The notes beneath the pieces are model-generated. The model saw only the letters and a program-made list of their open reading frames with translations. It had not been told where the DNA came from and did no database searches. The translations under genes and the position numbers were made by a program. A DNA stretch of 16,989 nt from a virus (lineage: Duplodnaviria; Heunggongvirae; Uroviricota; Caudoviricetes): the IMG/VR virus record IMGVR_UViG_2778261502_000004, positions 1 to 16,989 of that record; one strand, given 5' to 3'. Positions within the stretch are counted from its first letter, which is position 1; each line of letters opens with the position of its first letter. Positions 1-16,989 of this stretch are shown here, in pieces.

Positions 1-489
1 TCAAATCAAGCATCGCACTCTGAAGCAAGTAGCCATCTGCCTGCTTCCTTTGATCTGCGAGAAGTTTGTGGCAGTGATCACCAATCCCCCCTGTGCGCGA
101 GCAGCTTTCAGTCCAGCTTTTGTTCGTTCAACAATCAGTTCACGCTCCATTTCAGCCAGGGCACCCATCACATGAAAGAAAAAGCGTCCCATTGAGGTAC
201 TGGTATCAATTGAATCCGTCAGACTACGAAAGTTGATGCCTCGTTCGCGCAACTCCTCCACCAGCACGACAAGATGCCGCATACTGCGCCCCAGCCGATC
301 CAGCTTCCAGACAACCAGAGTGTCACCTTCCGATAATGTCCTGAGCAGTTTTTTCAATCCCGGCCTTTCGGACTTTATACCGCTTATCTTGTCTTCAAAA
401 ATCAGCTCGCATCCTGCACAGTTCAGCGCATTACGTTGTAGATCTGTGTTCTGGTCATTTGTTGACACACGTACATAGCCAATAAGCAT
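1..489 (-). CDS. pin: Serine recombinase / DNA invertase (Pin-Gin-Cin-Hin family); catalytic domain intact, C-terminal tail does not look like the usual HTH DNA-binding domain (possible frameshifted pseudogene)
   Basis: ORF 1..525(-); real start likely ATG at 489 (MLIGYVRVSTNDQNTDLQ, catalytic Ser in VRVSTNDQ) with GGGAG 7 nt upstream; last ~28 residues (GLVITATNFSQIKGSRQMATCFRVRCLI) differ from the conserved GRIGGRRPKL...STLYK tail; stop at 1..3. Confidence 0.8.
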   Translation of the reverse strand: MLIGYVRVSTNDQNTDLQRNALNCAGCELIFEDKISGIKSERPGLKKLLRTLSEGDTLVVWKLDRLGRSMRHLVVLVEELRERGINFRSLTDSIDTSTSMGRFFFHVMGALAEMERELIVERTKAGLKAARAQGGLVITATNFSQIKGSRQMATCFRVRCLI

Positions 490-543: not shown

Positions 544-569
544 TTTTCATAAACGTTGGTTTGGGAGAA
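544..569. repeat. Candidate invertase crossover site (pix/gix/cix-like), left boundary of invertible segment
   Basis: TTTTCATAAACGTTGGTTTGGGAGAA with core AAACG-TT-GGTTT; inverted copy of the site at 2114..2139; the central dinucleotide is complementary between the two sites as inversion requires. Confidence 0.6.
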
Positions 570-914
570 GCGGCGAAAAGGGATGTGGGCACAGGAGATA
601 ATCAGATACCGGATATGGGAGCATTCGCTTCTGGTTCGGGATGGTTCAGGCTACCAGGTGGATATATTGTTCAGTTTGGCACTTTTTCAGGAAACACGAC
701 CCGCTTTATCAGTGGACACTTCCCTATACCATTCCCTAATCAGCCGATGGTTTCAGTCAGTGTTATGTCTGATGCCGTTCAGTCAGACCCGTCGAATCCT
801 GCCCCGCAGGTTTTGTCTGTAAATTTTGAACATATCAGTAATTCAGCGTGGCGTGTGGCAACCAGTGATATCTCACAGCAATACAGATTCAGTTATATTT
901 CGATAGGATGGTAG
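570..914 (+). other. Start-less alternative tail-fibre C-terminal cassette (Sv'), expressed only after inversion
   Basis: ORF 516..914(+) opens with [24 protein letters not shown], the same junction peptide found inside the tail-fibre gene ([24 protein letters not shown]), then an unrelated C-terminus; no credible own start or RBS. Confidence 0.65.
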
Positions 915-916
915 AA

Positions 917-1357
917 ATGCAGAAATATATTTTCAGTGCCGATAAAAATGCGTTTTTCCCTGTGGAGCTTAAAATCGCTTATCAGGAATCCGGCGAATGG
1001 CCCGATGATGGAATCGAAATTGACGACACTGTTGCCGCCGAATTTATGAAGGAAGCACCAGAAGGAAAATACAGAGGCGTCATCGACGGAATGCCTGCAT
1101 GGATTGATATTCCACCGCCAACTCACGAGGAACAAATTGCCGCAGCCGAACTGGAAAAGCAGCAATTGATTGATCAGGTCAACGAATACATAAACAGTAA
1201 GCAATGGCCTGGTAAAGCGGCGATTGGTCGCCTGAAAGGTGAGGAACTGGCGCAATATAATTTGTGGCTGGATTATCTGGATGCACTGGAATTGGTAGAT
1301 ACTTCCAGTGCTCCAGATATTGAATGGCCTATACCTCCGGGGGGACAGGCCAGTTAA
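917..1357 (+). CDS. Tail fibre assembly protein (Tfa/U-like), partner of the alternative fibre cassette
   Basis: MQKYIFSADKNAFFP...GMPAWIDIPPPT...WPIPPGG, typical Tfa family features; AGGA 8 nt upstream of ATG 917; converges on the second tfa. Confidence 0.8.
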   Translation: MQKYIFSADKNAFFPVELKIAYQESGEWPDDGIEIDDTVAAEFMKEAPEGKYRGVIDGMPAWIDIPPPTHEEQIAAAELEKQQLIDQVNEYINSKQWPGKAAIGRLKGEELAQYNLWLDYLDALELVDTSSAPDIEWPIPPGGQAS

Positions 1358-1754
1358 TATTCTCTGGGTCGGTTGTCACATCAGTCGCCTTAATATCATT
1401 CTTATACGTCAGCCACGCCGACAGTTTTGCTCTGTTGGCGTCGCTAATTTCTCCCAGCATCAACTCTGTACGCCAGTCGAGCATCACATCATCAGCATGA
1501 GACAGTAGTTGCTGGCGTTTATTTTCTGCGACCTGAACTAACTCTTCTTTTGTTGGAGGGGGAATATCAGCCCAGGCTGGCATTCCATTCACGCTGGAGA
1601 GAATTTTCCCCTGCGGCCATACACCACCGTATTCCGCTCTTACGGTATCGCTGATTGCAACGGCATCTGATAAATCCCAGCCAGCATCGATATATTCCTG
1701 CATTAGGGACTCGGGAAAAAATGACAGGTTTGCGGGAGACCATAAAAATTCCAT
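1329..1754 (-). CDS. Tail fibre assembly protein (Tfa/U-like), partner of the currently expressed fibre
   Basis: MEFLWSPANLSFFPE...GMPAWADIPPPTKEE...NWPVPPEV; lies immediately downstream of the fibre gene on the same strand. Confidence 0.85.
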   Translation of the reverse strand: MEFLWSPANLSFFPESLMQEYIDAGWDLSDAVAISDTVRAEYGGVWPQGKILSSVNGMPAWADIPPPTKEELVQVAENKRQQLLSHADDVMLDWRTELMLGEISDANRAKLSAWLTYKNDIKATDVTTDPENINWPVPPEV

Positions 1755-1756
1755 AA

Positions 1757-2416
1757 TTAACGCCCTATTGAATACACCATTACATCCAGTGAGCTGGATG
1801 TATATGTACTGGTTGCAAGAAATGAAGAAAGATTGTTATTGGATGCACTGACAAATGGACTCGCCGCCACGTTAATGGTGCGGCTTTCAGTGTTGGCCCA
1901 TGAGCCAATAACCGTTGATGTGAACGGGATTAAATAGTTTGCTGATACTGTAGCCCCTGTAGTACCAGATGCTGCAGGAATACTTACTCTTTTCCACTGC
2001 AACATCCAGTTCTGAGGAAACCGTACATATCCTCCATTCAGTTCATTCCTGAATTCAAAACTACCCATATCCGGGATCTGATTTCCCCCTGTGCCCACAT
2101 CCCGTTTTGCCGCCTCTCCCAAACCAAGGTTTTCGAGAGCCGTTTTCACCGTGCCATCCGCTTTGATATCGCCAAACGGATTTTTGCGGCTTAACAGCAG
2201 CGCACGAAGCGCGGTAAGCAGCTGGTCGTGCCGCGCCTTCTCGAGACTGGCACCGGATGCCTCCACAACGCTGCAAAGCTCCTCCTGCAACATGTCAAAG
2301 TAGTCATCATCCAGATCGGTGGCAGGCGTGCCAGTCTGGGGGTTACCACGGGTAAAACCGTTTTTACCCGCGCCGAACTTATCCTTCTGCGCGGTTTTCG
2401 TGTCTATACGATGCAT
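1757..2416 (-). CDS. Side tail fibre protein (Mu S / e14 Stf-like): conserved N-terminal part joined to a variable C-terminal receptor-binding part
   Basis: 219 aa; N-terminus [47 protein letters not shown] is the conserved tail-fibre N-terminus as I recall it; the crossover site lies inside the gene at the [12 protein letters not shown] codons. Confidence 0.85.
2114..2139. repeat. Candidate invertase crossover site (pix/gix/cix-like) inside the tail-fibre gene, right boundary of invertible segment
   Basis: CTCTCCCAAACCAAGGTTTTCGAGAG with palindromic core AAACC-AA-GGTTT; ~60 bp of inverted homology with 556..616 follows on the inside of the segment. Confidence 0.65.
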
Positions 2417-2419
2417 GGA

Positions 2420-3004
2420 TTACTCCGGATATTTAAAAATTACGTAGGTATGCGACGGGCAGAGTTTGTTAAGCACGCACTCGACAACGGTGTCCCCCCA
2501 GATACGCAGTGCGGAATCACAGGGATCGCCACATGTCATCCAGGTGGTGTTGGTGGCGGCTGGCATGTTGATCTGCCAGTAATACCGCCATTCAGGCGCG
2601 TTCACAGCGTCAGTACAGGCCGATGAGCAGGTGAACGTGCTTTTGTCGTATCGCGTGATGGTGGCATCTGGTCTGCCCAGGGCAGCAAGCTGTGCAAGAT
2701 AAAAATCCTCGTTGATGCCGCCCGCCAGGTTAACCTTCGCATCCAGCCGTTGCTGACGCTGGCGAAGGGTCTGTGTCCCTGCGGGAATACATTCATCCGG
2801 CAGACCGCACAGACGCTCCCAGCGGTTTATCAGTTCAGTGGTGGTGCGCGGATCCAGCTCCCGCATCAGGGCATCCGCACGCTGATGAACGCGGGTTAAT
2901 GACGGTGCCGCACCGGCAATCGCCGGATCGCTGGCTGACCACGCCGGACCGGGGGGCAACAGTGCCGACAACAGACGGATGTAATCATCGTTTGTCACGT
3001 CCAT
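2420..3004 (-). CDS. Tail/baseplate protein of the YmfQ / Mu gp48 type (DUF2313-like)
   Basis: 194 aa [24 protein letters not shown]...[13 protein letters not shown]; sits directly upstream of the tail-fibre gene as ymfQ does in e14; recognised from memory, not aligned. Confidence 0.75.
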
Positions 3005-3140
3005 GAAATCGTCCCCAGTACCGCCAGTTCATTTTTTGCAATGGAGATATTGTCTGCCGGTGCAAGCAACTGATGGCTGTATTCCCCGTTCGCACCGGAA
3101 ATCGCCTCACTGATACGCGATACCTTCAGTTCTCCCTGCG
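2995..3140 (-). pseudogene. C-terminal remnant of the gene that normally precedes ymfQ (baseplate J-like by synteny)
   Basis: Open frame ...[46 protein letters not shown], stop overlapping the ymfQ-like start (ATGGACGTGA); no start codon; about 48 codons only. Confidence 0.3.
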
Positions 3141-3269
3141 GATATAGGGTTTGTCGCGGTTCGGGTATTCATGTGTTTCCACACGGCGACCGGTTCCCGC
3201 ACTTTCTTCTTCAACCTTAAACGGCACGCCGCGAAATGACGCGTCCTGAAGCCTGTCTTTCCACGTCAT
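3126..3269 (-). pseudogene. N-terminal remnant of a Mu N-like DNA-circularisation / tail protein, cut off after 47 codons
   Basis: MTWKDRLQDASFRGVPFKVEEESAGTGRRVETHEYPNRDKPYIRREN* with GGAG RBS; the SFRGVPF...GRR..HEYP.RD.PY motif matches the N-terminus of this family as I recall it; expected position after the tape measure in Mu-like order. Confidence 0.5.
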
Positions 3270-3285
3270 ATATACTCCGAAAATT

Positions 3286-3310
3286 AAAAAGCCACCTATT
3301 AGAAGGTGGC
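3286..3310 (-). terminator. Rho-independent terminator downstream of the 176-aa gene
   Basis: GCCACCT-TATTAGA-AGGTGGC hairpin; on the minus strand it is followed by TTTTT. Confidence 0.7.
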
Positions 3311-3330
3311 CTTGTAATGAATTTTATTAA

Positions 3331-3861
3331 TTAGCGAGTCAGAAACAACGAATCTTTATACTTTTGCTGTTGTTCATTTAAATACTTAGCTGTTTCATCG
3401 CTGGCAAATGGAAATATTACCGTATTTTTAGGCATGGTAATTTCTTTTTTGTCCAGCGTCAGAGTAAACATAGGAACATACTGAGCAGAGTAACGCACCG
3501 CAGAAACGAGCTCTAGTTTAGACTCTTCAATAACACTTAAATTATCCAGGCTAACTTTCTCTTCATCTTTTTTCTTTGACGCATTTAAAGTTTTTATTAC
3601 TTTATTTAATTTCTCCTGAAAATCCTCCTTAAAGTTTTCAGGATTGCCGTCGACAACAAGAATCTGTTCACCCTGATTATCTGGAAAAATAATCTTTGCA
3701 CTTATCAATTTATTTTCTTTATAAACATCACCAAGTTTTATGGCTCCTCCAGATAACTGAATAATATGTTCATCTTTAAAGGAGATGTTGCCAGAGATTA
3801 TGAGAGATGAAAAAATAGCCGCTGCTCCAAGAATTACACTTGCTGTGATATAGCCTTTCAT
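3331..3861 (-). CDS. Hypothetical membrane-anchored or secreted protein encoded by an AT-rich insertion
   Basis: 176 aa; hydrophobic N-terminus MKGYITASVILGAAAIFSSLIISG then a Lys/Glu/Asp-rich domain; visibly AT-rich between GC-rich tail genes; own terminator. Confidence 0.6.
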   Translation of the reverse strand: MKGYITASVILGAAAIFSSLIISGNISFKDEHIIQLSGGAIKLGDVYKENKLISAKIIFPDNQGEQILVVDGNPENFKEDFQEKLNKVIKTLNASKKKDEEKVSLDNLSVIEESKLELVSAVRYSAQYVPMFTLTLDKKEITMPKNTVIFPFASDETAKYLNEQQQKYKDSLFLTR

Positions 3862-3952
3862 TTTTCGCCTATTAACATTTTTCTAAATGTGCATTAATTC
3901 TATCACTCTATTTATGACTTACAACCAGCAATACATGTGAGGGGAATCCTGG

Positions 3953-6196: not shown

Positions 6197-6552
6197 TACT
6201 GGTAATCCCCTTCTTCACCGTGGAACTCAAGATCGACCGTGCCTTCTTCGGCATTATGGTTCGCTTCGCCGTGCAGCCAGGCAGACGACAGTACATAGAC
6301 CTGACCGTTCGCCAGCTCGGCAGTGATGGTCATCTCATCAGACGAGGTGATTTTGCTCACCGGAAAATTCTTCGGCACCTTGAAGGTCCCTTTGACATAG
6401 GGCGCACGGTGAGTTTCCTTGCGGTCCACTGAACCGTCCAGGCCGATGATGTCATCATTGACCGTCCTGTTCATGGGCACCTCAATGCCGCCGGTCAGCG
6501 ATAGCTGCTGACCGTCAATTTTGAAATAACAGGTTCCCCCGATACGGGCCAT
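6196..6552 (-). CDS. Phage tail tube protein (Mu M-like)
   Basis: 118 aa MARIGGTCYFKIDGQQLSLTGG...; TAATG overlap with the sheath stop; sheath-tube-chaperone-tape measure order. Confidence 0.7.
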   Translation of the reverse strand: MARIGGTCYFKIDGQQLSLTGGIEVPMNRTVNDDIIGLDGSVDRKETHRAPYVKGTFKVPKNFPVSKITSSDEMTITAELANGQVYVLSSAWLHGEANHNAEEGTVDLEFHGEEGDYQ

Positions 6553-7457
6553 TATGCAGACTCCTCTGAATACTGAAGACGGAACTGGTTAACCAAGGCA
6601 AAGACACGCAACTGGTTAACATAGTCAGGCGGGAACAGCGTGTTCAGGCGGTTCGGATCGCTGGCATCACGCTCCACAACCAGGTACTGCTTAAACAGTT
6701 CGTAGTTTTCCACGATCCCCGCACGCTCAAGCTGACGGTAGGTTGCCAGCAGTTCCCCTTTGATTACCGCCGGGGTGACAATCGCCTGACCGGGACCAAA
6801 GCGGGTACCGTCGCTGGCAAGCTTGTGACGCCCGTACTTACTGGTAATGACGGATTTCAGTTTGCGCAGTACATACGCACTGGTATGCAGCGTCTCGCTG
6901 TCGAGGTAGCTGTTATCCGCAACCCCGTAAGCATTTTTCCTGTACGTGGTGACATCACGCTGAATGCGCAGCCCCCCGCTTTCGACATACGCCGTTGCCA
7001 CGCCATGAGACAGCAGGGTCTGCTGCTCGGTCATCGTGAACCGTTTCCCCTTCGGCGCAGGCAGCATACCCACCAGCTCACCGGTCTGCGTGGGACGTGC
7101 CGGATCGTTGCGGATAAACACCGCTGCGCGGGCGGTACGGCTTGCCGCCAGCTCGTCGGCAGGCGTCTGGGTCTCTTTTTCGTACCCCGCCAGGGTGATG
7201 TGCTGCTGGTTAAACTGGTCACCTGCGTTCACCAGTTCTGACAGTGTGCCGGTCTTTGCCGTATACACATGACCATACAGCTGACGCGCATAGCTCCAGC
7301 GACCGCTGGTATCGTTCATCTCGGTCACTGTCCCACTTCGAACCGTAGCCGCGCTGATGACGGGATTGTCCTGGTTTGTATTGCTTCCAGCCTTCGCTTT
7401 TGTGGCTTTCGCAGTAGCCTGACGGGTCTGTGGTTGTAGAGCGGCAGCCGCGAACAC
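6552..7457 (-). CDS. Contractile tail sheath protein, 5'-truncated; the upstream part of this ORF is probably out-of-frame read-through from an HNH gene remnant
   Basis: 301-aa ORF with GTG start and no RBS; C-terminal two-thirds sheath-like by synteny and by motifs I recall (RKNAYGVADNSYLD, GQAIVTP, VERDASDPNRLNTLFPPDYVNQ); first ~40 residues are low-complexity Ala/Thr/Lys; sheaths are normally over 370 aa. Confidence 0.6.
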   Translation of the reverse strand: MFAAAALQPQTRQATAKATKAKAGSNTNQDNPVISAATVRSGTVTEMNDTSGRWSYARQLYGHVYTAKTGTLSELVNAGDQFNQQHITLAGYEKETQTPADELAASRTARAAVFIRNDPARPTQTGELVGMLPAPKGKRFTMTEQQTLLSHGVATAYVESGGLRIQRDVTTYRKNAYGVADNSYLDSETLHTSAYVLRKLKSVITSKYGRHKLASDGTRFGPGQAIVTPAVIKGELLATYRQLERAGIVENYELFKQYLVVERDASDPNRLNTLFPPDYVNQLRVFALVNQFRLQYSEESA

Positions 7458-7485
7458 GGCAGGCTTTTGGGGTTCGAGGGGGCAT
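7219..7485 (-). pseudogene. N-terminal fragment of a phage HNH endonuclease fused out of frame to the sheath gene
   Basis: MPPRTPKACRVRGCRSTTTDPSGYCESHKSEGWKQ...RGYGSKWD shows the C-x3-GC...YC-x2-H...RGY..W pattern of the HNH N-terminus; AGGA 8 nt upstream of ATG 7485; similarity is lost after about residue 52. Confidence 0.4.
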
Positions 7486-7543
7486 TATTAATGTCCTAAA
7501 TAGTTTCCTCTCTAAAAACTAATTTGTGTTAGGGAAATCATTA

Positions 7544-7587
7544 AATGAAGTGAACCTTTTAGTACCCACTGTAAAATTCACTTCATT
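7544..7587 (-). terminator. Long inverted repeat just downstream of the 169-aa gene (possible terminator or protein-binding site)
   Basis: AATGAAGTGAA ... TTCACTTCATT, 11-bp perfect arms with a 22-nt loop; no clean U-tract. Confidence 0.35.
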
Positions 7588-7592
7588 AATAT

Positions 7593-8102
7593 TTAACCAA
7601 ATACAATGAATGTTCCAAAAGATGCTAATGATATATTTATCAGAGAATCCATACGAGCCTTAATTTCTGGCGTATCCTCGACCTCAGTACGCCATTGATT
7701 GACTGCCTCAATCATATCTCGACAAAACACATCTATTTGCAACTGAAGTTTGCCATTTAAGTGATTTAAATGCACTTGGCAATTTGGCCTAGGTGGTGGT
7801 GTAAAATTAAACTGCATCATTCTTTTCCTGTTCTCTGGATCCTGTCCAGCATGTAAACAAGAACAACGATACAGCCAAAAATCATCCGCATAAAATCGAC
7901 ACTGTTCATGTGTACCGGATGTATATTTATTTTCAAGATAACGAGAAACCCAATCTTTATACCATTTCCCTGTTTCACCCTTACCTATTTTGGGACGTTC
8001 AACGCTCCTGCAAATATCAGGCATAGCAAGAGCCATAAACAATGCCGCTAACCAATTCTCACTTTCAATTGAAGATTCAATTGATTTTATAAACCTTTCC
8101 AT
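7593..8102 (-). CDS. Hypothetical Cys/His-rich protein encoded by an AT-rich insertion between the lysis cassette and the HNH remnant
   Basis: 169 aa MERFIKSIESSIESENWLAALFMALAMPDICRS...YRCSCLHAG...; visibly AT-rich; no family recognised. Confidence 0.6.
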   Translation of the reverse strand: MERFIKSIESSIESENWLAALFMALAMPDICRSVERPKIGKGETGKWYKDWVSRYLENKYTSGTHEQCRFYADDFWLYRCSCLHAGQDPENRKRMMQFNFTPPPRPNCQVHLNHLNGKLQLQIDVFCRDMIEAVNQWRTEVEDTPEIKARMDSLINISLASFGTFIVFG

Positions 8103-8168
8103 AACTCACCTTTATATTATTTGATGATTATATTTATAGCACAGTTACAATCATTTTCCGGAAAATAT

Positions 8169-8420
8169 TTATTCATTTTGATATCCTATTTTTAGAATAT
8201 CCTTTTTATCTCTATTGCATTGCGCTAATGCAGATAACAAACTCGCATTCAGTTCCAGGCTAGCACCATATGTCAGTGGACTAGGTACAACTGGAATCGG
8301 TGTTTCAGAAGTCAGGCTGGCTGGCAGTGGTACCGCCGGAGTGTTCACGTAAACTGTCCGCGTACTTCCGCAACCGGTCAGCAGCGGCAGCAGGCACAGG
8401 ACGTGAAGCACAATCATCAT
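8169..8420 (-). CDS. Outer-membrane spanin lipoprotein (Rz1-like), overlapping the 3' part of Rz in another frame
   Basis: MMIVLHVLCLLPLLTGCGSTR... with lipobox LLTGC followed by a Pro-rich region; start inside Rz. Confidence 0.65.
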   Translation of the reverse strand: MMIVLHVLCLLPLLTGCGSTRTVYVNTPAVPLPASLTSETPIPVVPSPLTYGASLELNASLLSALAQCNRDKKDILKIGYQNE

Positions 8421-8697
8421 CCGCAACAGCCACTTTGATATCTTCCTGGGTTCTCTGTGACTCCAGTGCAATCTGCTGTTTTGCATGCTGGTTAGCCTCT
8501 ATAACTGTATTGATGATTTGCAGTGATTGCAGAACGTTACGGGTAATGGCAGTTGCTGATTCAGCATTTCGTATAGCCTCATCAACACGCTCCTTTTCGT
8601 GCAGATATTTGCTGTAGTAATGCCCGGCAGACCAGATGAAGGAACCAATGACGGTAACAAAGAAGGCAACAATAACCAGCTTATATCTCAGCTTCAT
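8305..8697 (-). CDS. Inner-membrane spanin (Rz-like)
   Basis: 130 aa with N-terminal transmembrane segment (LVIVAFFVTVIGSFIW) and a coiled-coil-like remainder; start overlaps the endolysin stop. Confidence 0.75.
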   Translation of the reverse strand: MKLRYKLVIVAFFVTVIGSFIWSAGHYYSKYLHEKERVDEAIRNAESATAITRNVLQSLQIINTVIEANQHAKQQIALESQRTQEDIKVAVADDDCASRPVPAAAADRLRKYADSLREHSGGTTASQPDF

Positions 8698-9157
8698 TTA
8701 CTACCCCACCAGCCTCTTTAAACCGGGAAATCAGGTCGCCAATTTTATGTTCATACTGACCGTAACCTGCACCAGGTAACGACGCCCAGATATTGCTGCA
8801 ACGATCGATAGCCTGACGGATATCACCGCGATCAATCATCGGTAAAGCGCCACGCTCTTTAATCTGCTGCAATGCCACAGCGTCCTGGCTTTTCGGAGAG
8901 AAGTCTTTCAGGCCAAGCTGCTTACGATAGGAATCCCACCAACGGGAAAGAAGCTGGTAGCGCCCGGCTGCTGTTGATTTGAGTTTTGGGTTTAGCGTGA
9001 CAAGTTTGCGAGGGTGATCGGAGTAATCAGTAAATAGCTCTCCGCCTACAATGACGTCATAACCATGATTTCTGGTTTTCTGCCGTCCGTTATCCGTTCC
9101 TTCTGACCATGCCACCATATCGAGGAAAGCTTTACGCTGAGGATTAAGATTTTGCAT
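8681..9157 (-). CDS. R: Endolysin, lambda R-type lytic transglycosylase
   Basis: 158 aa MQNLNPQRKAFLDMVAWSEGTDNGRQKTRNHGYDVIVGGELFTDYSDHPRKL..., near-identical to lambda R as I recall it; AGGGGTGA RBS. Confidence 0.93.
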   Translation of the reverse strand: MQNLNPQRKAFLDMVAWSEGTDNGRQKTRNHGYDVIVGGELFTDYSDHPRKLVTLNPKLKSTAAGRYQLLSRWWDSYRKQLGLKDFSPKSQDAVALQQIKERGALPMIDRGDIRQAIDRCSNIWASLPGAGYGQYEHKIGDLISRFKEAGGVVNEAEI

Positions 9158-9311
9158 TTTTCACCCCTGTCAGTCGTTCCCAGAAGTACGTCAGTGCAAC
9201 CGAACCCATTGCACCACTAATCCCCGCTGTCGCGAGAATCATGTAAATACTGAATCCACTTTCGATGCTGATCAGGCCACCAATAACACCGGTGAATCCT
9301 GATATCCGGTC
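9147..9311 (-). pseudogene. Start-less hydrophobic C-terminal remnant, probably of the holin gene
   Basis: Open frame ...SGFTGVIGGLISIESGFSIYMILATAGISGAMGSVALTYFWERLTGVKNAKS* ending in the ATG of R, the position of a holin 3' end; bounded upstream by an in-frame stop, no N-terminal part. Confidence 0.45.
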
Positions 9312-9486
9312 TTAAGTCAGATTTCGTAATTGCACCTGACGTGCATTGCTCAAGTTTTTTAGCCAGCACAAAACTGGCTTTTTTATAGCCATTGAAAACC
9401 AGCCGTAAGTAGCCAGGTGTTGAGCCAACTTTTCCGGCCAACTCGCCCTGCTGTTCTTTGGTTAAAGAGTCCCAATACGCTTTCAT
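9217..9486 (-). CDS. Cro-like HTH regulator (YdaS/Cro family) whose 3' end reads out of frame through the holin remnant
   Basis: Start ATG 9486 with GGAGGT RBS (MKAYWDSLTKEQQGELAGKVGSTPGYLRLVFNGYKKASFVLAKKLEQCTSGAITKSDLRPDI); the last 27 residues (RIHRCYWWPDQHRKW...) are Trp/Arg/His-rich, as expected for the wrong frame of a hydrophobic gene; divergent from cI. Confidence 0.6.
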   Translation of the reverse strand: MKAYWDSLTKEQQGELAGKVGSTPGYLRLVFNGYKKASFVLAKKLEQCTSGAITKSDLRPDIRIHRCYWWPDQHRKWIQYLHDSRDSGD

Positions 9487-9576
9487 ACAATATGTACCTC
9501 CGGTGTACATATTACATGATTAAAATGAACCTTCAAGATACTTGTACCTTAACGGTACAAGGGTTTTAATTTCGTT
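9487..9576. promoter_or_regulatory. Divergent immunity control region with two 19-bp palindromic operators and candidate pR and pRM promoters
   Basis: Operators ATGTACC-N5-TGTACAT (9492..9510) and TTGTACC-N5-GGTACAA (9542..9560); minus-strand promoter TTGAAG (9531..9536) / 16 bp / TAATAT (9509..9514); plus-strand TTTAAT at 9565..9570 lies just before the cI ATG, suggesting a leaderless cI message. Confidence 0.55.
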
Positions 9577-10251
9577 ATGAAAACAATCCATGACATCCGG
9601 CGGTCTAACGCCAGAAAACTGAGAGATGGTGTTGGCGGGAATTCTTCCTTTGCCACTATGATTGATCGCGAGCCAACCCAGACCAGCAGGTTTATGGGAG
9701 ATGGTGCTACTAAAAATATCGGTGACAGCATGGCACGACACATCGAAAAATGTTTCGACCTACCTGTCGGATGGCTCGATCAAGAACACCAGACAACGAA
9801 CATCACAAAAAAACCTGATGTTTCAATCACTAATAAACAAATCACATTAGTCCCTGTCATATCATGGGTACAGGCCGGAGCATGGAAAGAAGTTGGATAT
9901 TCTGAGGTTGATTTGAGCACAGCAGAAACGTATCCCTGCCCTGTACCCTGTGGGGAAATGACTTATATCTTGCGGGTGATAGGTGATTCAATGATTGATG
10001 AGTACCGCCCGGGAGACATGATTTTTGTCGATCCTGAAGTACCTGCCTGCCACGGTGACGACGTTATTGCATTGATGCACGATACAGGTGAAACCACCTT
10101 CAAAAGGTTAATAGAAGATGGGACACAGCGTTATCTCAAAGCGTTAAACCCAAACTGGCCTGAGCCTTACATTAAGATCAACGGTAATTGCTCTATAATT
10201 GGTACAGTGATTTTCTCAGGAAAACCAAGAAGATACAAAATCAAAGCCTAA
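9577..10251 (+). CDS. CI-type prophage repressor: phage-CI HTH N-domain plus LexA/S24-type autocleaving C-domain
   Basis: 224 aa; N-terminal ...GDSMARHIEKCFDLPVGWLDQ; C-terminal domain with Ser in VIGDSM and Lys in TFKRL, the S24 catalytic dyad context. Confidence 0.9.
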   Translation: MKTIHDIRRSNARKLRDGVGGNSSFATMIDREPTQTSRFMGDGATKNIGDSMARHIEKCFDLPVGWLDQEHQTTNITKKPDVSITNKQITLVPVISWVQAGAWKEVGYSEVDLSTAETYPCPVPCGEMTYILRVIGDSMIDEYRPGDMIFVDPEVPACHGDDVIALMHDTGETTFKRLIEDGTQRYLKALNPNWPEPYIKINGNCSIIGTVIFSGKPRRYKIKA

Positions 10252-14141: not shown

Positions 14142-14491
14142 TGGAGCCATACAGCCTCACACTCGATGAGGCCTGTCATTTTCTCAAGATATCCAGACCG
14201 ACTGCCATTAACTGGATACGCACAGGGCGTCTTCAGGCAACACGCAAAGATCCCACTAAGAATAAATCTCCTTACCTCACAACACGACAAGCCTGCATTG
14301 CGGCTCTTCAGTCTCCGCTGCATACTGTCCAGGTGAGCGCGGGTGATGGCATAACAGAGGAAAGAAAATGTCACTCTTCCGCAGAGGTGAAATATGGTAC
14401 GCCAGTTTCACATTGCCGAACGGTAAAAGATTTAAACAGTCTCTTGGAACAAAGGACAAAAGGCAGGCGACAGAACTCCATGACAAGCTAA
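14141..14491 (+). CDS. xis: Excisionase (P22 Xis-like)
   Basis: Start ATG 14141 (AGGTGA RBS; TAATG overlap with the previous gene), 116 aa [33 protein letters not shown]...; 3' end overlaps the integrase start by ~124 bp. Confidence 0.8.
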
Positions 14492-15531
14492 AGGCTGAAG
14501 CATGGCGGGTCAGCAAACTTGGTGAAATACCTGATATAACGTTCGAGGAAGCGTGTGTCAGGTGGCTTGAAGAGAAAGCACATAAAAAATCACTGGACGA
14601 TGACAAAAGCCGGATCGGATTCTGGCTTCAACATTTCGCAGGAATGCAACTAAGAGACATTACTGAATCAAAAATTTATTCAGCAATGCAGAAAATGACG
14701 AACCGGCGTCATGAGGAAAACTGGAAACTCAGGGCAGAAGCATGCAGAAAAAAAGGGAAACCTGTTCCAGAATACACGCCAAAACCAGCGTCCGTTGCAA
14801 CGAAGGCTACGCATCTTTCATTTATAAAGGCCCTACTAAGAGCCGCAGAGCGTGAATGGAAAATGCTGGATAAGGCACCAATTATTAAAGTGCCCCAACC
14901 AAAGAATAAACGGATCCGCTGGCTGGAGCCCCATGAAGCACAAAGGCTGATTGATGAATGTCCGGAGCCATTAAAGTCTGTTGTTGAATTTGCACTGGCA
15001 ACAGGCCTAAGACGCTCGAACATCATCAACCTTGAATGGCAACAAATAGATATGCAGCGCCGGGTGGCATGGATAAACCCGGAAGAGAGTAAATCAAACC
15101 GCGCAATTGGCGTTGCGCTGAATGATACTGCATGTCGCGTATTGAAAAAACAAATCGGGAATCATCACCGTTGGGTATTTGTGTACAAGGAAAGCTGTAC
15201 CAAACCAGACGGAACGAAAGCGCCAACAGTCAGGAAGATGCGGTATGACGCAAACACAGCCTGGAAAGCGGCGCTGAGACGGGCTGGTATTGATGATTTC
15301 AGATTTCACGACTTGAGACACACCTGGGCAAGTTGGCTGGTTCAAGCCGGAGTCCCGTTGTCAGTGTTACAGGAAATGGGAGGCTGGGAGTCTATCGAAA
15401 TGGTTCGTCGATATGCTCACCTTGCACCTAATCACCTTACCGAACACGCACGGCAAATAGACTCGATCCTAAACCCATCGGTCCCAAATTTGTCCCAGTC
15501 AAAAAATAAGGAAGGTACTAATGATGTGTAA
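14368..15531 (+). CDS. int: Tyrosine-recombinase integrase of the P22 / SfV family
   Basis: 387 aa [24 protein letters not shown]...; C-terminal [10 protein letters not shown]...VRRYAHL carries the catalytic His/Arg/Tyr context; ends 15 bp from the tRNA 3' end. Confidence 0.93.
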
Positions 15532-15545
15532 CTTATTGATTTAAA

Positions 15546-15621
15546 TGGTGCCGATAATAGGAGTCGAACCTACGACCTTCGCATTACGAATGCGCTGCTC
15601 TACCAACTGAGCTATATCGGC
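15546..15621 (-). tRNA. thrW: tRNA-Thr (anticodon CGU), the attachment tRNA
   Basis: Reverse complement reads GCCGATATAGCTCAGTTGGTAGAGCAGCGCATTCGTAATGCGAAGGTCGTAGGTTCGACTCCTATTATCGGCACCA, 76 nt with CCA end and anticodon loop CATTCGTAATG. Confidence 0.97.
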
Positions 15622-15735
15622 CCTGAAAGGACATGTTCACGAACGTGAATCACGGTGGACAAGGTTAAAACTAACCGGGCGATGCGTCAATGGCCTTGTG
15701 AATCAAATGGCTACTTTTGCATCACCCGGTTTTAT

Positions 15736-16989
15736 TTACGCACGAATGGTGTAATCACCAATGCCGATCCACTTGTAAGTGGTCAGTGCTTCCAGCCCCA
15801 TTGGGCCACGCGCGTGGAGTTTTTGTGTGCTTACCGCCACTTCCGCACCCAGACCAAACTGGCCGCCGTCGGTAAAACGCGTAGAGGCGTTAACGTAAAC
15901 AGCGGACGAATCCACTTCGTTAACAAAACGCTGGGCGTTGCGCATATCGCGGGTCAGGATCGCATCGGAGTGTTGTGTGCCGTGTTCACGAATATGGGCG
16001 ATGGCATCGTCAAGATCGCTGACGATTTTGACGTTCAAATCTAATGACAGAAACTCATCGTCATACTCTTCGGCTTTAACAGCAACCACCTTCGCAGGGC
16101 CTGCCTGCAACTGCGCCAGTGCAGCTGCATCTGCGTGTAATGTCACGCCGCTTTCCGCCATTTGTTTGCTTAATGCGGGCAGGAAGCTATCGGCGATGTT
16201 TTTATTCACCAGCAACGTTTCAACCGTATTACATGTGCTCGGACGCTGAGTTTTCGCGTTGACGATCACTTTTAATGCTTCAGCGATCTCTACACTTTCA
16301 TCAACGTAAATATGGCATACGCCTATACCACCTGTGATCACCGGGATTGTCGACTGTTCACGGCACAGTTTATGCAAACCAGCGCCACCACGCGGGATCA
16401 GCATGTCGATGTATTTATCCATACGCAGCATTTCACTGACCAGCGCACGGTCAGGATTATCAATCGCCTGCACGGCACCCGCCGGTAAGCCGCAGGATTT
16501 CAGGGCGTCCTGAATCACCGCCACCGTTGCAGCGTTAGTGCGACACGTTTCTTTGCCACCGCGCAGGATCACCGCATTACCGGTTTTCAGGCACAGCGAA
16601 GCGACATCAACCGTCACGTTCGGGCGCGCTTCATAAATCACGCCAATAACCCCCAGCGGTACGCGACGACGCTCAAGACGCAGGCCGCTGTCCAGTACGC
16701 CGCCATCGATTACCTGCCCCACCGGATCGGCGAGGTTGCACACCTGACGTACATCGTCGGCAATGCCTTTCAGCCGTGCGGGCGTCAGTGCCAGACGGTC
16801 AAGCATCGCTTCGCTAAGGCCATTGGCTCGCGCGTCAGCAACATCCTGGGCGTTAGCGTTGAGGATGATTTCGCTTTGTGCTTCCAGTTCATCGGCGATT
16901 TTTTCCAGCACGCGATTTTTTTCGCGGCTGGAGAGTTGCGCTAATTTATACGAGGCTTGCTTCGCGGCAATGCCCATTTGTTCCAGCAT
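15736..16989 (-). CDS. proA: Gamma-glutamyl phosphate reductase (proline biosynthesis)
   Basis: Complete 417-aa ORF starting exactly at the window end ([27 protein letters not shown]...); recognised as E. coli ProA; adjacent to thrW as in E. coli. Confidence 0.97.

Follow-up and report, generated by a model that had tools for sequence, protein, structure and literature searches.

A truncated, frameshifted PinE/Fin-type invertase gene beside an intact tail-fibre switch in a degraded thrW prophage: an orphaned segment probably inverted in trans among carriers of the same lesion

The analysed stretch of DNA, referred to below as the window (16,989 nt, IMG/VR record IMGVR_UViG_2778261502_000004), comprises a whole degraded E. 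coli prophage at thrW. Read from the proA end, proA, a tRNA gene and the integrase gene are followed by genes for an HTH_17 protein, YfdQ- and YfdR-like proteins, an S24 repressor and lysis. Then come a short sheath ORF, the tail tube and tape measure genes, a gap in the baseplate genes, ymfQ, a fibre switch and a dead invertase gene (Table 1). All that the baseplate gap contains is a 47-aa DNA_circ_N stub together with a 176-aa ORF that has no assigned family. The baseplate J, gp46 and V genes and the head and terminase genes, which are present in relatives, were missing from the window. The same baseplate deletion was found in strain GPEC349-628, but that strain carries an intact pinE and a GIY-YIG gene at the end of its prophage. 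On this gene content the prophage would be unable to make particles, so that the fibre switch would have no host-range role here.

Table 1. Features of the invertase and fibre-switch region and of the proA end of the prophage (window positions).
Feature	Position	Strand	Basis or remark
Truncated, frameshifted PinE/Fin-type serine invertase gene, pseudogene, 162-aa ORF	1..489	-	ORF listing, Pfam, Gin alignment, PGAP
Out-of-frame, diverged stub of the region coding for the DNA-binding domain, ending at a deletion junction just outside the window	1..85	-	62% identity to intact pinE, coding nt 399-491
G6 homopolymer with one base missing (C run on the + strand), frameshift point and identity breakpoint	86..91	-	Alignment to intact pinE
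Intact part coding for the catalytic domain, codons 1-133	92..489	-	97.7% nt identity to D1 pinE, coding nt 1-398, 0 indels
Left 26-bp crossover site TTTTCATAAACG-TT-GGTTTGGGAGAA, central TT 556-557	544..569	+	Core matches the e14 P-segment repeat
Invertible segment, 1,570 bp	557..2126		69-nt inverted repeats at its ends (551-619 / 2064-2132), 88% complementary
Cassette B, silent alternative fibre C-terminus, Gp53-like_C	570..914	+	Pfam PF21882, E 4e-9; translation after flip
Tail-fibre assembly chaperone gene, cassette B	908..1357	+	Pfam Caudo_TAP, E 6e-35
Tail-fibre assembly chaperone gene, cassette A (currently expressed side)	1329..1754	-	Pfam Caudo_TAP, E 5e-27
Current fibre gene, 219 aa: StfP-like constant N-terminus (2416-2127) and cassette A	1757..2416	-	ORF listing
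Right 26-bp crossover site CTCTCGAAAACC-TT-GGTTTGGGAGAG, read on the minus strand, central TT 2127-2126	2114..2139	-	
ymfQ / Mu Gp48-like baseplate gene, last intact tail gene before the internal deletion	2420..3004	-	Pfam PF10076, E 2.7e-26; comparison with PSS-11 and GPEC349-628
Integrase gene	14368-15531		
tRNA-Thr(CGT)	15546-15621		
proA	15736-16989		

The two crossover sites of the switch have the inner half-site GGTTTGGGAGA in common. The window arms TTGGTTTGGGAGAAGC and TTGGTTTGGGAGAGGC match 15 and 14 of the 16 positions, respectively, of the core repeat of the e14 P segment, TTGGTTTGGGAGAAGG (PMC12529663). The constant N-terminus of the fibre is named StfP by the NCBI annotation pipeline (PGAP) in strains PSS-08-1 and NH-21. 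An in silico flip of positions 557-2126 placed this N-terminus in frame with cassette B and gave an uninterrupted alternative fibre ending in ...SIGW. Because the window retains the two 26-bp sites, a pair of in-frame fibre C-termini, the chaperone gene of each and the 5' region of the invertase gene, the switch is, judged by its sequence, a structurally intact substrate that is orphaned but apparently flippable. A scan of positions 1-2600 for promoters and terminators returned no more sites than shuffled sequence.

The longest ORF touching positions 1-489 runs on the minus strand from an ATG at 489 to a stop at 3-1 and has 162 codons, with a PinE-type start (MLIGYVRVSTNDQ). Its sole Pfam domain is the N-terminal Resolvase domain (PF00239, residues 3-135, E = 2.1e-50), and the YVRVST nucleophile motif is present. 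The best match of solved structure was Gin (4m6f; E = 4e-69, 136 residues aligned). With both Gin structures, 4m6f and 3uj3 (193 aa), the alignment covered only residues 1-136 of the ORF, and the last 27 residues (136-162) were non-homologous. Intact PinE of E. coli D1 (184 aa), used for comparison, contains the Resolvase domain together with HTH_7 at residues 138-180. HTH_7 was absent from the window ORF even at a relaxed threshold of E ≤ 10, and at this threshold it was absent also from a frame-restored allele of 164 aa. The arm region reads RIGGRRPKL in PinE, GLVITATNF in the window and GIGDHCHKL after frame restoration, so that GRRP occurs in neither frame. The 162-aa protein falls in a cluster of 1,964 members formed at 90% identity, in which the representative and several of the named members listed are 184 aa long. 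Of the features by which Din-family invertases are recognised, the gene thus retains the catalytic domain and lacks both HTH_7 and the G-R-(R/P)-(P/R) minor-groove arm; for want of this domain and arm, it is filed as a pseudogene rather than as a member enzyme.

Three lesions account for this state. The frameshift lies in the G run at coding nt 399-404, which is one base short of G7 when the DNA is aligned to intact pinE and to near-identical alleles from E. coli. At the same run, identity to intact pinE drops from 97.7% (coding nt 1-398) to 62% (nt 399-491). Restoring the frame gives the tail GIGDHCHKLLADQRKQA against RIGGRRPKLTPEQWEQA in PinE; the restored tail, GIGDHCHKLL..., has lost the GRRP arm. 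Recognisable pinE homology ends within positions 1-39. The DNA beyond the edge was taken from NLUV01000010.1 (assembly GCA_002233275.1), to which the window is 100% identical over 6,489 nt. The 260 nt past window position 1 in that contig consist of an AT-rich spacer and then the 3' end of an autotransporter gene, and they match the counterpart in strain PSS-11 identically. HTH-coding DNA was absent from NLUV01000010.1 beyond window position 1. The approximately 25 terminal codons (HTH helices 2-3) are deleted, and the gene is fused to the spacer and the autotransporter gene. We also considered that the enzyme might be controlled by programmed frameshifting or by phase variation in the G run, and rejected this, since the G7 form of the gene is still truncated and without HTH. 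With a disrupted, truncated frame in an element that lacks essential genes, the gene is a pseudogene of a cryptic prophage.

The original prediction, made from the letters of the window, described an invertase with an intact catalytic N-domain whose last ~28 codons do not encode the HTH tail, and both points agree with the Pfam and Gin results above. It was also correct that the DNA still resembles an invertase 3' end shifted out of frame, by one base in the G run, although the truncation could not be seen from the window. Alignment of this DNA against pinE, as it had proposed for locating the frameshift, placed the shift at 86-91, and the DNA past the window edge held the spacer and the autotransporter gene. 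The possibility that this C-terminus is a normal variant of functional invertases is contradicted by the pseudogene flag in all carriers and by their one shared junction. The claim that an enzyme without HTH should not bind the crossover sites is supported by analogy with Hin, and the damage goes further than the prediction had assumed, comprising the 3' deletion, the frameshift and the loss of the GRRP arm even in the corrected frame. In Hin, the C-terminal 52 residues and GRPR are needed for DNA binding (cited in PMC4122451), and the contact site for Fis is the DNA-binding domain (PMC3798978). By this analogy, neither binding of the crossover sites nor contact with Fis is to be expected of the 162-aa product. 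A Fis enhancer would lie, as in Din systems, in the retained 5' part (92-489).

The truncation junction was found in 27 of 5,426 complete E. coli genomes. It was always chromosomal and at least 99% identical, with one and the same autotransporter gene beside it, and this uniformity points to a single deletion in an ancestor. In most carriers the order is paoCD, a LysR fragment, the autotransporter gene and the truncated invertase. PGAP flagged the gene as a pseudogene in all 27 carriers, with the wording "frameshifted; incomplete; missing C-terminus" in PSS-11, EC21Z-137, PSS-08-1 and LR-50, among others, and named the nearest alleles fin. The G run is G6 in 23 carriers and G7 in two (1217KP and APEC-O117H42), and the region is deleted in the other two. 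Both G7 alleles were marked "incomplete", and their ORF still stops after 164 aa without HTH. The 162-codon ORF is open in 21 carriers. A common extra 1-nt deletion at coding nt 327, inside the catalytic domain, shortens the ORF to 117 aa in ET358, 160-11H1 and EC-07 and to 89 aa in L9. Identity in the invertase 5' part and the cassettes ranges among carriers from 93 to 100%, as against at least 99% at the junction. This pattern indicates that cassettes and invertase 5' part have been exchanged repeatedly between prophages by recombination, with a breakpoint at the G run. Seven of the 27 copies were without at least one crossover site recognisable by pattern search, and on this count the locus is decaying. 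In TUM9868 and EC06 the left site is lost, and there the switch is certainly frozen.

Orientation of the segment was judged by the strand of the tfaE-type chaperone gene, and the 27 carriers split 15:12. Three independent segment families occur in both orientations each, and their members are 99.89-100% identical after an in silico flip exactly at the central TT. The flip pairs are JS01 and 23CRST009 (1,831 bp, 100.00% identity after flip), PSS-16 and F1005 (1,791 bp, 99.94%), and 160-11H1 and EC-07 (1,900 bp, 99.89%); the flanks of the pairs are near-identical too. L9 against 160-11H1 was left out of the clean evidence, as nine differences remained after the flip, clustered in one arm; gene conversion or exchange at the cassette edge may have been involved. 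The arms in the flip-pair genomes share only 15 bp, TTGGTTTGGGAGAAG, made up of the central dinucleotide with the inner half-site and a single base beyond these; the exchange must therefore have taken place inside the crossover site. Efficient RecA exchange needs about 20-30 bp of homology, for which 15 bp is too short, and the shared interval is where Din invertases cut. The pattern argues for site-specific inversion over homologous recombination. The alleles with the nt-327 deletion (117 aa, and 89 aa in L9) also occur in both orientations although the lesion lies in the catalytic domain; inversion would therefore have continued after the death of the gene, with the truncated protein not responsible.

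The haplotype of the window itself was observed in one orientation only. Its flipped form, with the invertase flank joined to cassette A, was found in none of the 5,426 complete E. coli genomes, and other contigs encoding the identical 162-aa protein yielded neither this form nor a further flip pair. Cassette A is essentially absent from the 5,426-genome collection, and an exact 30-mer of it had no match in a collection of species-representative genomes.

We propose that an old single deletion joined a pinE/fin-type gene to the autotransporter region and removed about 25 codons. The remaining stub has diverged and lost the GRRP arm, and loss of one G from the G7 run has put it out of frame. 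The resulting 162-aa product keeps the catalytic domain and, for lack of the DNA-binding domain, would not bind the sites. The orphaned switch would have remained flippable, and the segment would have been inverted repeatedly at the central dinucleotide region in the carrier population. We think it most probable that a compatible invertase of the Din family carried out these inversions in trans, encoded by another prophage, a plasmid or an infecting phage. We consider this explanation as a whole, a dead pinE/fin-type remnant beside an orphaned switch flipped in trans among carriers of the allele, to be well supported and probable. Within it, the lesions, the junction, the intactness of sites and cassettes, the polymorphic orientation and the 15-bp exchange interval are direct observations, and we infer the catalysis in trans, the inactivity of the protein and the function of the enhancer.

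Possible helpers were sought in the carrier chromosomes. By sensitive blastn, 2-8 invertase-like places per chromosome were detected in all but one of the 25 carriers listed, and in GF31 an intact pinE accompanies a further switch locus. Only 6 of 27 carriers had another HTH-coding 3' end of pinE type on the chromosome; it was absent from the chromosomes of PSS-16, F1005, 160-11H1 and EC-07, that is, of both members of two flip pairs. Precedents exist for inversion by an enzyme from another element: PinQ, encoded by prophage Qin, flips the e14 P segment by way of the core repeat given above (PMC12529663), and Fin of Fels-2 supports H-segment inversion without Hin (cited in PMC4122451). On the other hand, deletion of pinE in K-12 is reported to leave the e14 segment locked at the native level of PinQ (PMC12529663), so help from a paralogue is not automatic, and a strain without a close PinE-type helper could be effectively frozen.

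These results divide the claim that the switch would be locked. As a general statement it finds no support in view of the 15:12 split, the three flip pairs and a doubly broken family in both orientations, while it is consistent with the window haplotype, known in a single orientation. The proviso attached to it, that another invertase in the genome might act in trans, is the best explanation for inversion after gene death. PinQ and Fin speak for it; the scarcity of a second pinE-type 3' end among carriers speaks against it.

A narrower form of the locked reading is that the switch is frozen in the strain of the window, which would have no compatible invertase, so that cassette A stays expressed and the locus decays neutrally with the prophage. 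We regard this as unlikely, though deserving of some weight. The cis enzyme is dead, the single orientation of the haplotype fits, K-12 without pinE is reported to be locked despite PinQ and PinR (PMC12529663), most carriers are short of a second pinE-type 3' end, TUM9868 and EC06 have no left site, and in a prophage that makes no particles nothing would select for switching. However, in three carrier lineages the segment is found either way round in near-identical copies, one of these lineages having a doubly broken gene, the population is split 15:12, and both sites and both cassettes are intact in the window. The orientations might instead have been imported by homologous recombination with related phages or loci, or have arisen by RecA exchange between the inverted repeats. 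Such traffic is suggested by the greater variation of the 5' part and cassettes than of the junction, which indicates repeated replacement by recombination, by the presence in strain 2824, in a different setting, of a copy 99.7% identical to the JS01 segment, and by the window arms, 69 nt at 88% identity. We nevertheless hold this account to be improbable: flip partners differ at 0-2 positions in 1.8-1.9 kb, whereas the non-carrier loci listed reach at most 99.7% identity and the intact-pinE loci at most 96.6%; the flanks of the pairs match as well; and the 15 bp shared by the arms in the informative genomes coincide exactly with the invertase crossover core.

Two further accounts concern the gene rather than the segment, and to both we give hardly any credence. 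One holds that the truncated protein is still active, alone or with subunits of a paralogue, and flips its own segment. Its catalytic domain is complete, the DNA is 97.7% identical to a functional-type pinE, and the ORF is open in 21 carriers. Yet no frame encodes a DNA-binding domain, the GRRP arm is lost even when the frame is restored, the Hin data make this region essential for site binding (PMC4122451) and for Fis contact (PMC3798978), and the 117-aa and 89-aa alleles occur in both orientations. The other attributes the frameshift to a sequencing error in the homopolymer and takes the gene for no more than a short variant. The shift does sit in a G6/G7 run, and two assemblies have G7. However, G6 is the state of 23 independent complete genomes and of every contig that encodes the identical protein, and the G7 ORF ends at 164 aa regardless, with the 3' end deleted; the deletion junction practically refutes this account. 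Somewhat apart stands the idea that the module is kept as a host-side, phase-variable unit driven in trans, the dead gene being retained for the cis-acting enhancer in its 5' part. In that case the host would benefit from StfP/StfE-like chimeras, which might block phage adsorption in the way reported for e14 StfE2, and the contrast between the decaying 3' stub and the intact, recombination-refreshed sites, cassettes and first 398 nt would be explained. We assign it a low probability because 7 of the 27 copies have no recognisable site on at least one side.

Returning to the preferred explanation, inversion in trans, everything that it involves is of known kinds. The gene is an ordinary pseudogene within a prophage that is decaying, and RefSeq already flags near-identical alleles as such; decayed invertases are common in defective prophages, and trans complementation within the family is established. 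What is modestly new is the population evidence that an orphaned switch was still flipping with site precision. A dead cis invertase does not equal a locked switch, and strains sharing the same lesion serve as a free "natural PCR" that exposes repeated, site-precise inversion. Since the segment has apparently been inverted repeatedly beside a dead cis gene, invertible segments should be judged by their sites and by the whole invertase complement of the genome, not by the adjacent gene alone. This is relevant to annotators and to those who predict phage host range or phase-variable loci. The pattern fits the known cross-reactivity of the Din family and the flipping of e14 by PinQ from another prophage (PMC12529663).

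Among known systems, the e14 P segment with PinE of E. coli K-12 (ymfQ-stfP-tfaP / tfaE-stfE-pinE) has the same gene order as the window locus. Shared with it are the ymfQ/Gp48 gene, the StfP-like constant N-terminus, a pair of opposed fibre C-termini that each come with a Caudo_TAP chaperone, an invertase gene directly outside the segment, the crossover core TTGGTTTGGGAGAAG(G) and a defective host prophage; the catalytic part of the window gene is 97.7% identical in DNA to a gene annotated as pinE. The two differ in location (thrW here, icd in e14), in segment length (1,570 bp here, 1,797 bp in e14) and in the DNA-binding domain, which the window invertase lacks. Unlike in e14, cassette A of the window stands beside an invertase gene in 0 of 5,426 complete E. 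coli genomes.

PinQ and PinR of Qin and Rac invert a cryptic-prophage switch from elsewhere at the same 16-bp repeat (PMC12529663), which is the model proposed here. In K-12, however, the cis enzyme PinE is intact and is reported to be needed at native expression, whereas in the window the cis enzyme is dead and the trans partner putative. Hin and Fin of Salmonella, as cited in PMC4122451, exemplify the cross-complementation between Din invertases of different elements that we propose. That system differs in being a flagellin promoter switch with a normally functional Hin, while fibre C-termini are exchanged in the window. Gin with the G segment of Mu and Cin with the C segment of P1 resemble the window in their 26-bp sites with central AA/TT and in exchanging fibre C-termini and chaperones. 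Mu and P1 are, in contrast, functional phages with full-length enzymes (Gin, 193 aa), whereas the window ORF aligns at residues 1-136 only and lies in a prophage without baseplate or head genes. Finally, pinB, pinD and pinF of Shigella are Din-family invertase genes that survive with their fibre segments in defective prophages; they are described as active enzymes, unlike the pseudogene of the window.

The truncated invertase gene is 97.7% identical to intact pinE up to a G run (window 86-91) and 62% identical from precisely that point onward (coding nt 399, counted from the ATG). Among the carriers, the E. coli genomes with the same truncation junction, the 5' part of the invertase is 93%-100% identical, versus at least 99% for the junction. 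This pattern suggests that recombination has repeatedly ended at the G run, within the gene, and that the fibre cassettes are exchanged as one unit with the 5' half of the invertase.

Additional 1-nt deletions in the catalytic domain, at coding nt 327 and 236, were found at carrier loci L013 (ET358), L017 (L9), L018 (160-11H1) and L021 (EC-07). The alleles left by these deletions, with ORFs of 117 aa (89 aa in L9), show that the invertase pseudogene is still decaying. The tail-fibre switch is locked for real in some carrier copies. L024 (TUM9868) and L026 (EC06) have lost the left crossover site together with the 5' half of the invertase, and IS66 and IS1 insertions are present on the right side in L009 (1409) and L025 (BA92).

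Comparison of L9 with 160-11H1 after in silico flipping of the segment revealed nine clustered differences confined to one arm (left arm positions 573-618), contrary to the prediction of simple reciprocal inversion; gene conversion or cassette-edge exchange may account for them. GF31 carries a second switch locus of the same type with an intact pinE (NZ_CP172152.1, 2731795-2733994), and strain 2824 (NZ_CM128562.1, 372054-373955) contains a 99.7% identical copy of the segment of carrier JS01, in a context without a matching invertase flank.

Features of the prophage remnant outside the switch
Feature	Position	Strand	Remark
DNA_circ_N stub	3126-3269		47 aa; all that is left in 3005-3952 apart from the 176-aa ORF
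176-aa ORF	3331-3861		in deletion region, beside the DNA_circ_N stub
Sheath ORF	within 6552-9157		301 aa, short; GTG start
Lysis genes LysC, DUF2570	within 6552-9157		
YdaS-like/HTH gene	9217-9510	-	small
S24 LexA/CI-type repressor	9577-10251	+	
tRNA-Thr(CGT)	15546-15621		between integrase and aldehyde-dehydrogenase-family gene

Particle formation is impossible for the prophage in the window. The interval from the sheath ORF to the lysis genes (window 6552-9157) contains no genes for head, portal or terminase. The immunity region (9217-10251), a divergent pair in which the small YdaS-like/HTH gene faces away from the S24 repressor, looks intact despite the missing structural genes.

Within 3005-3952, the baseplate genes between the tape measure and ymfQ have been lost through an internal deletion. 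No Pfam family was found for the 176-aa ORF. The stretch containing it has matches of 99.7% identity in many E. coli genomes, where the underlying features carry the annotations hypothetical protein, DNA circularization protein and tape measure.

At the opposite end (14368-16989), the prophage occupies the thrW attachment site, with the integrase followed by tRNA-Thr(CGT) and then by a 417-aa aldehyde-dehydrogenase-family gene, which we read as proA. The CP4-6 prophage of K-12 occupies the same site, and its genes ykfB, yafW and ykfI are found near the locus in carriers such as PSS-08-1 and TUM9868.
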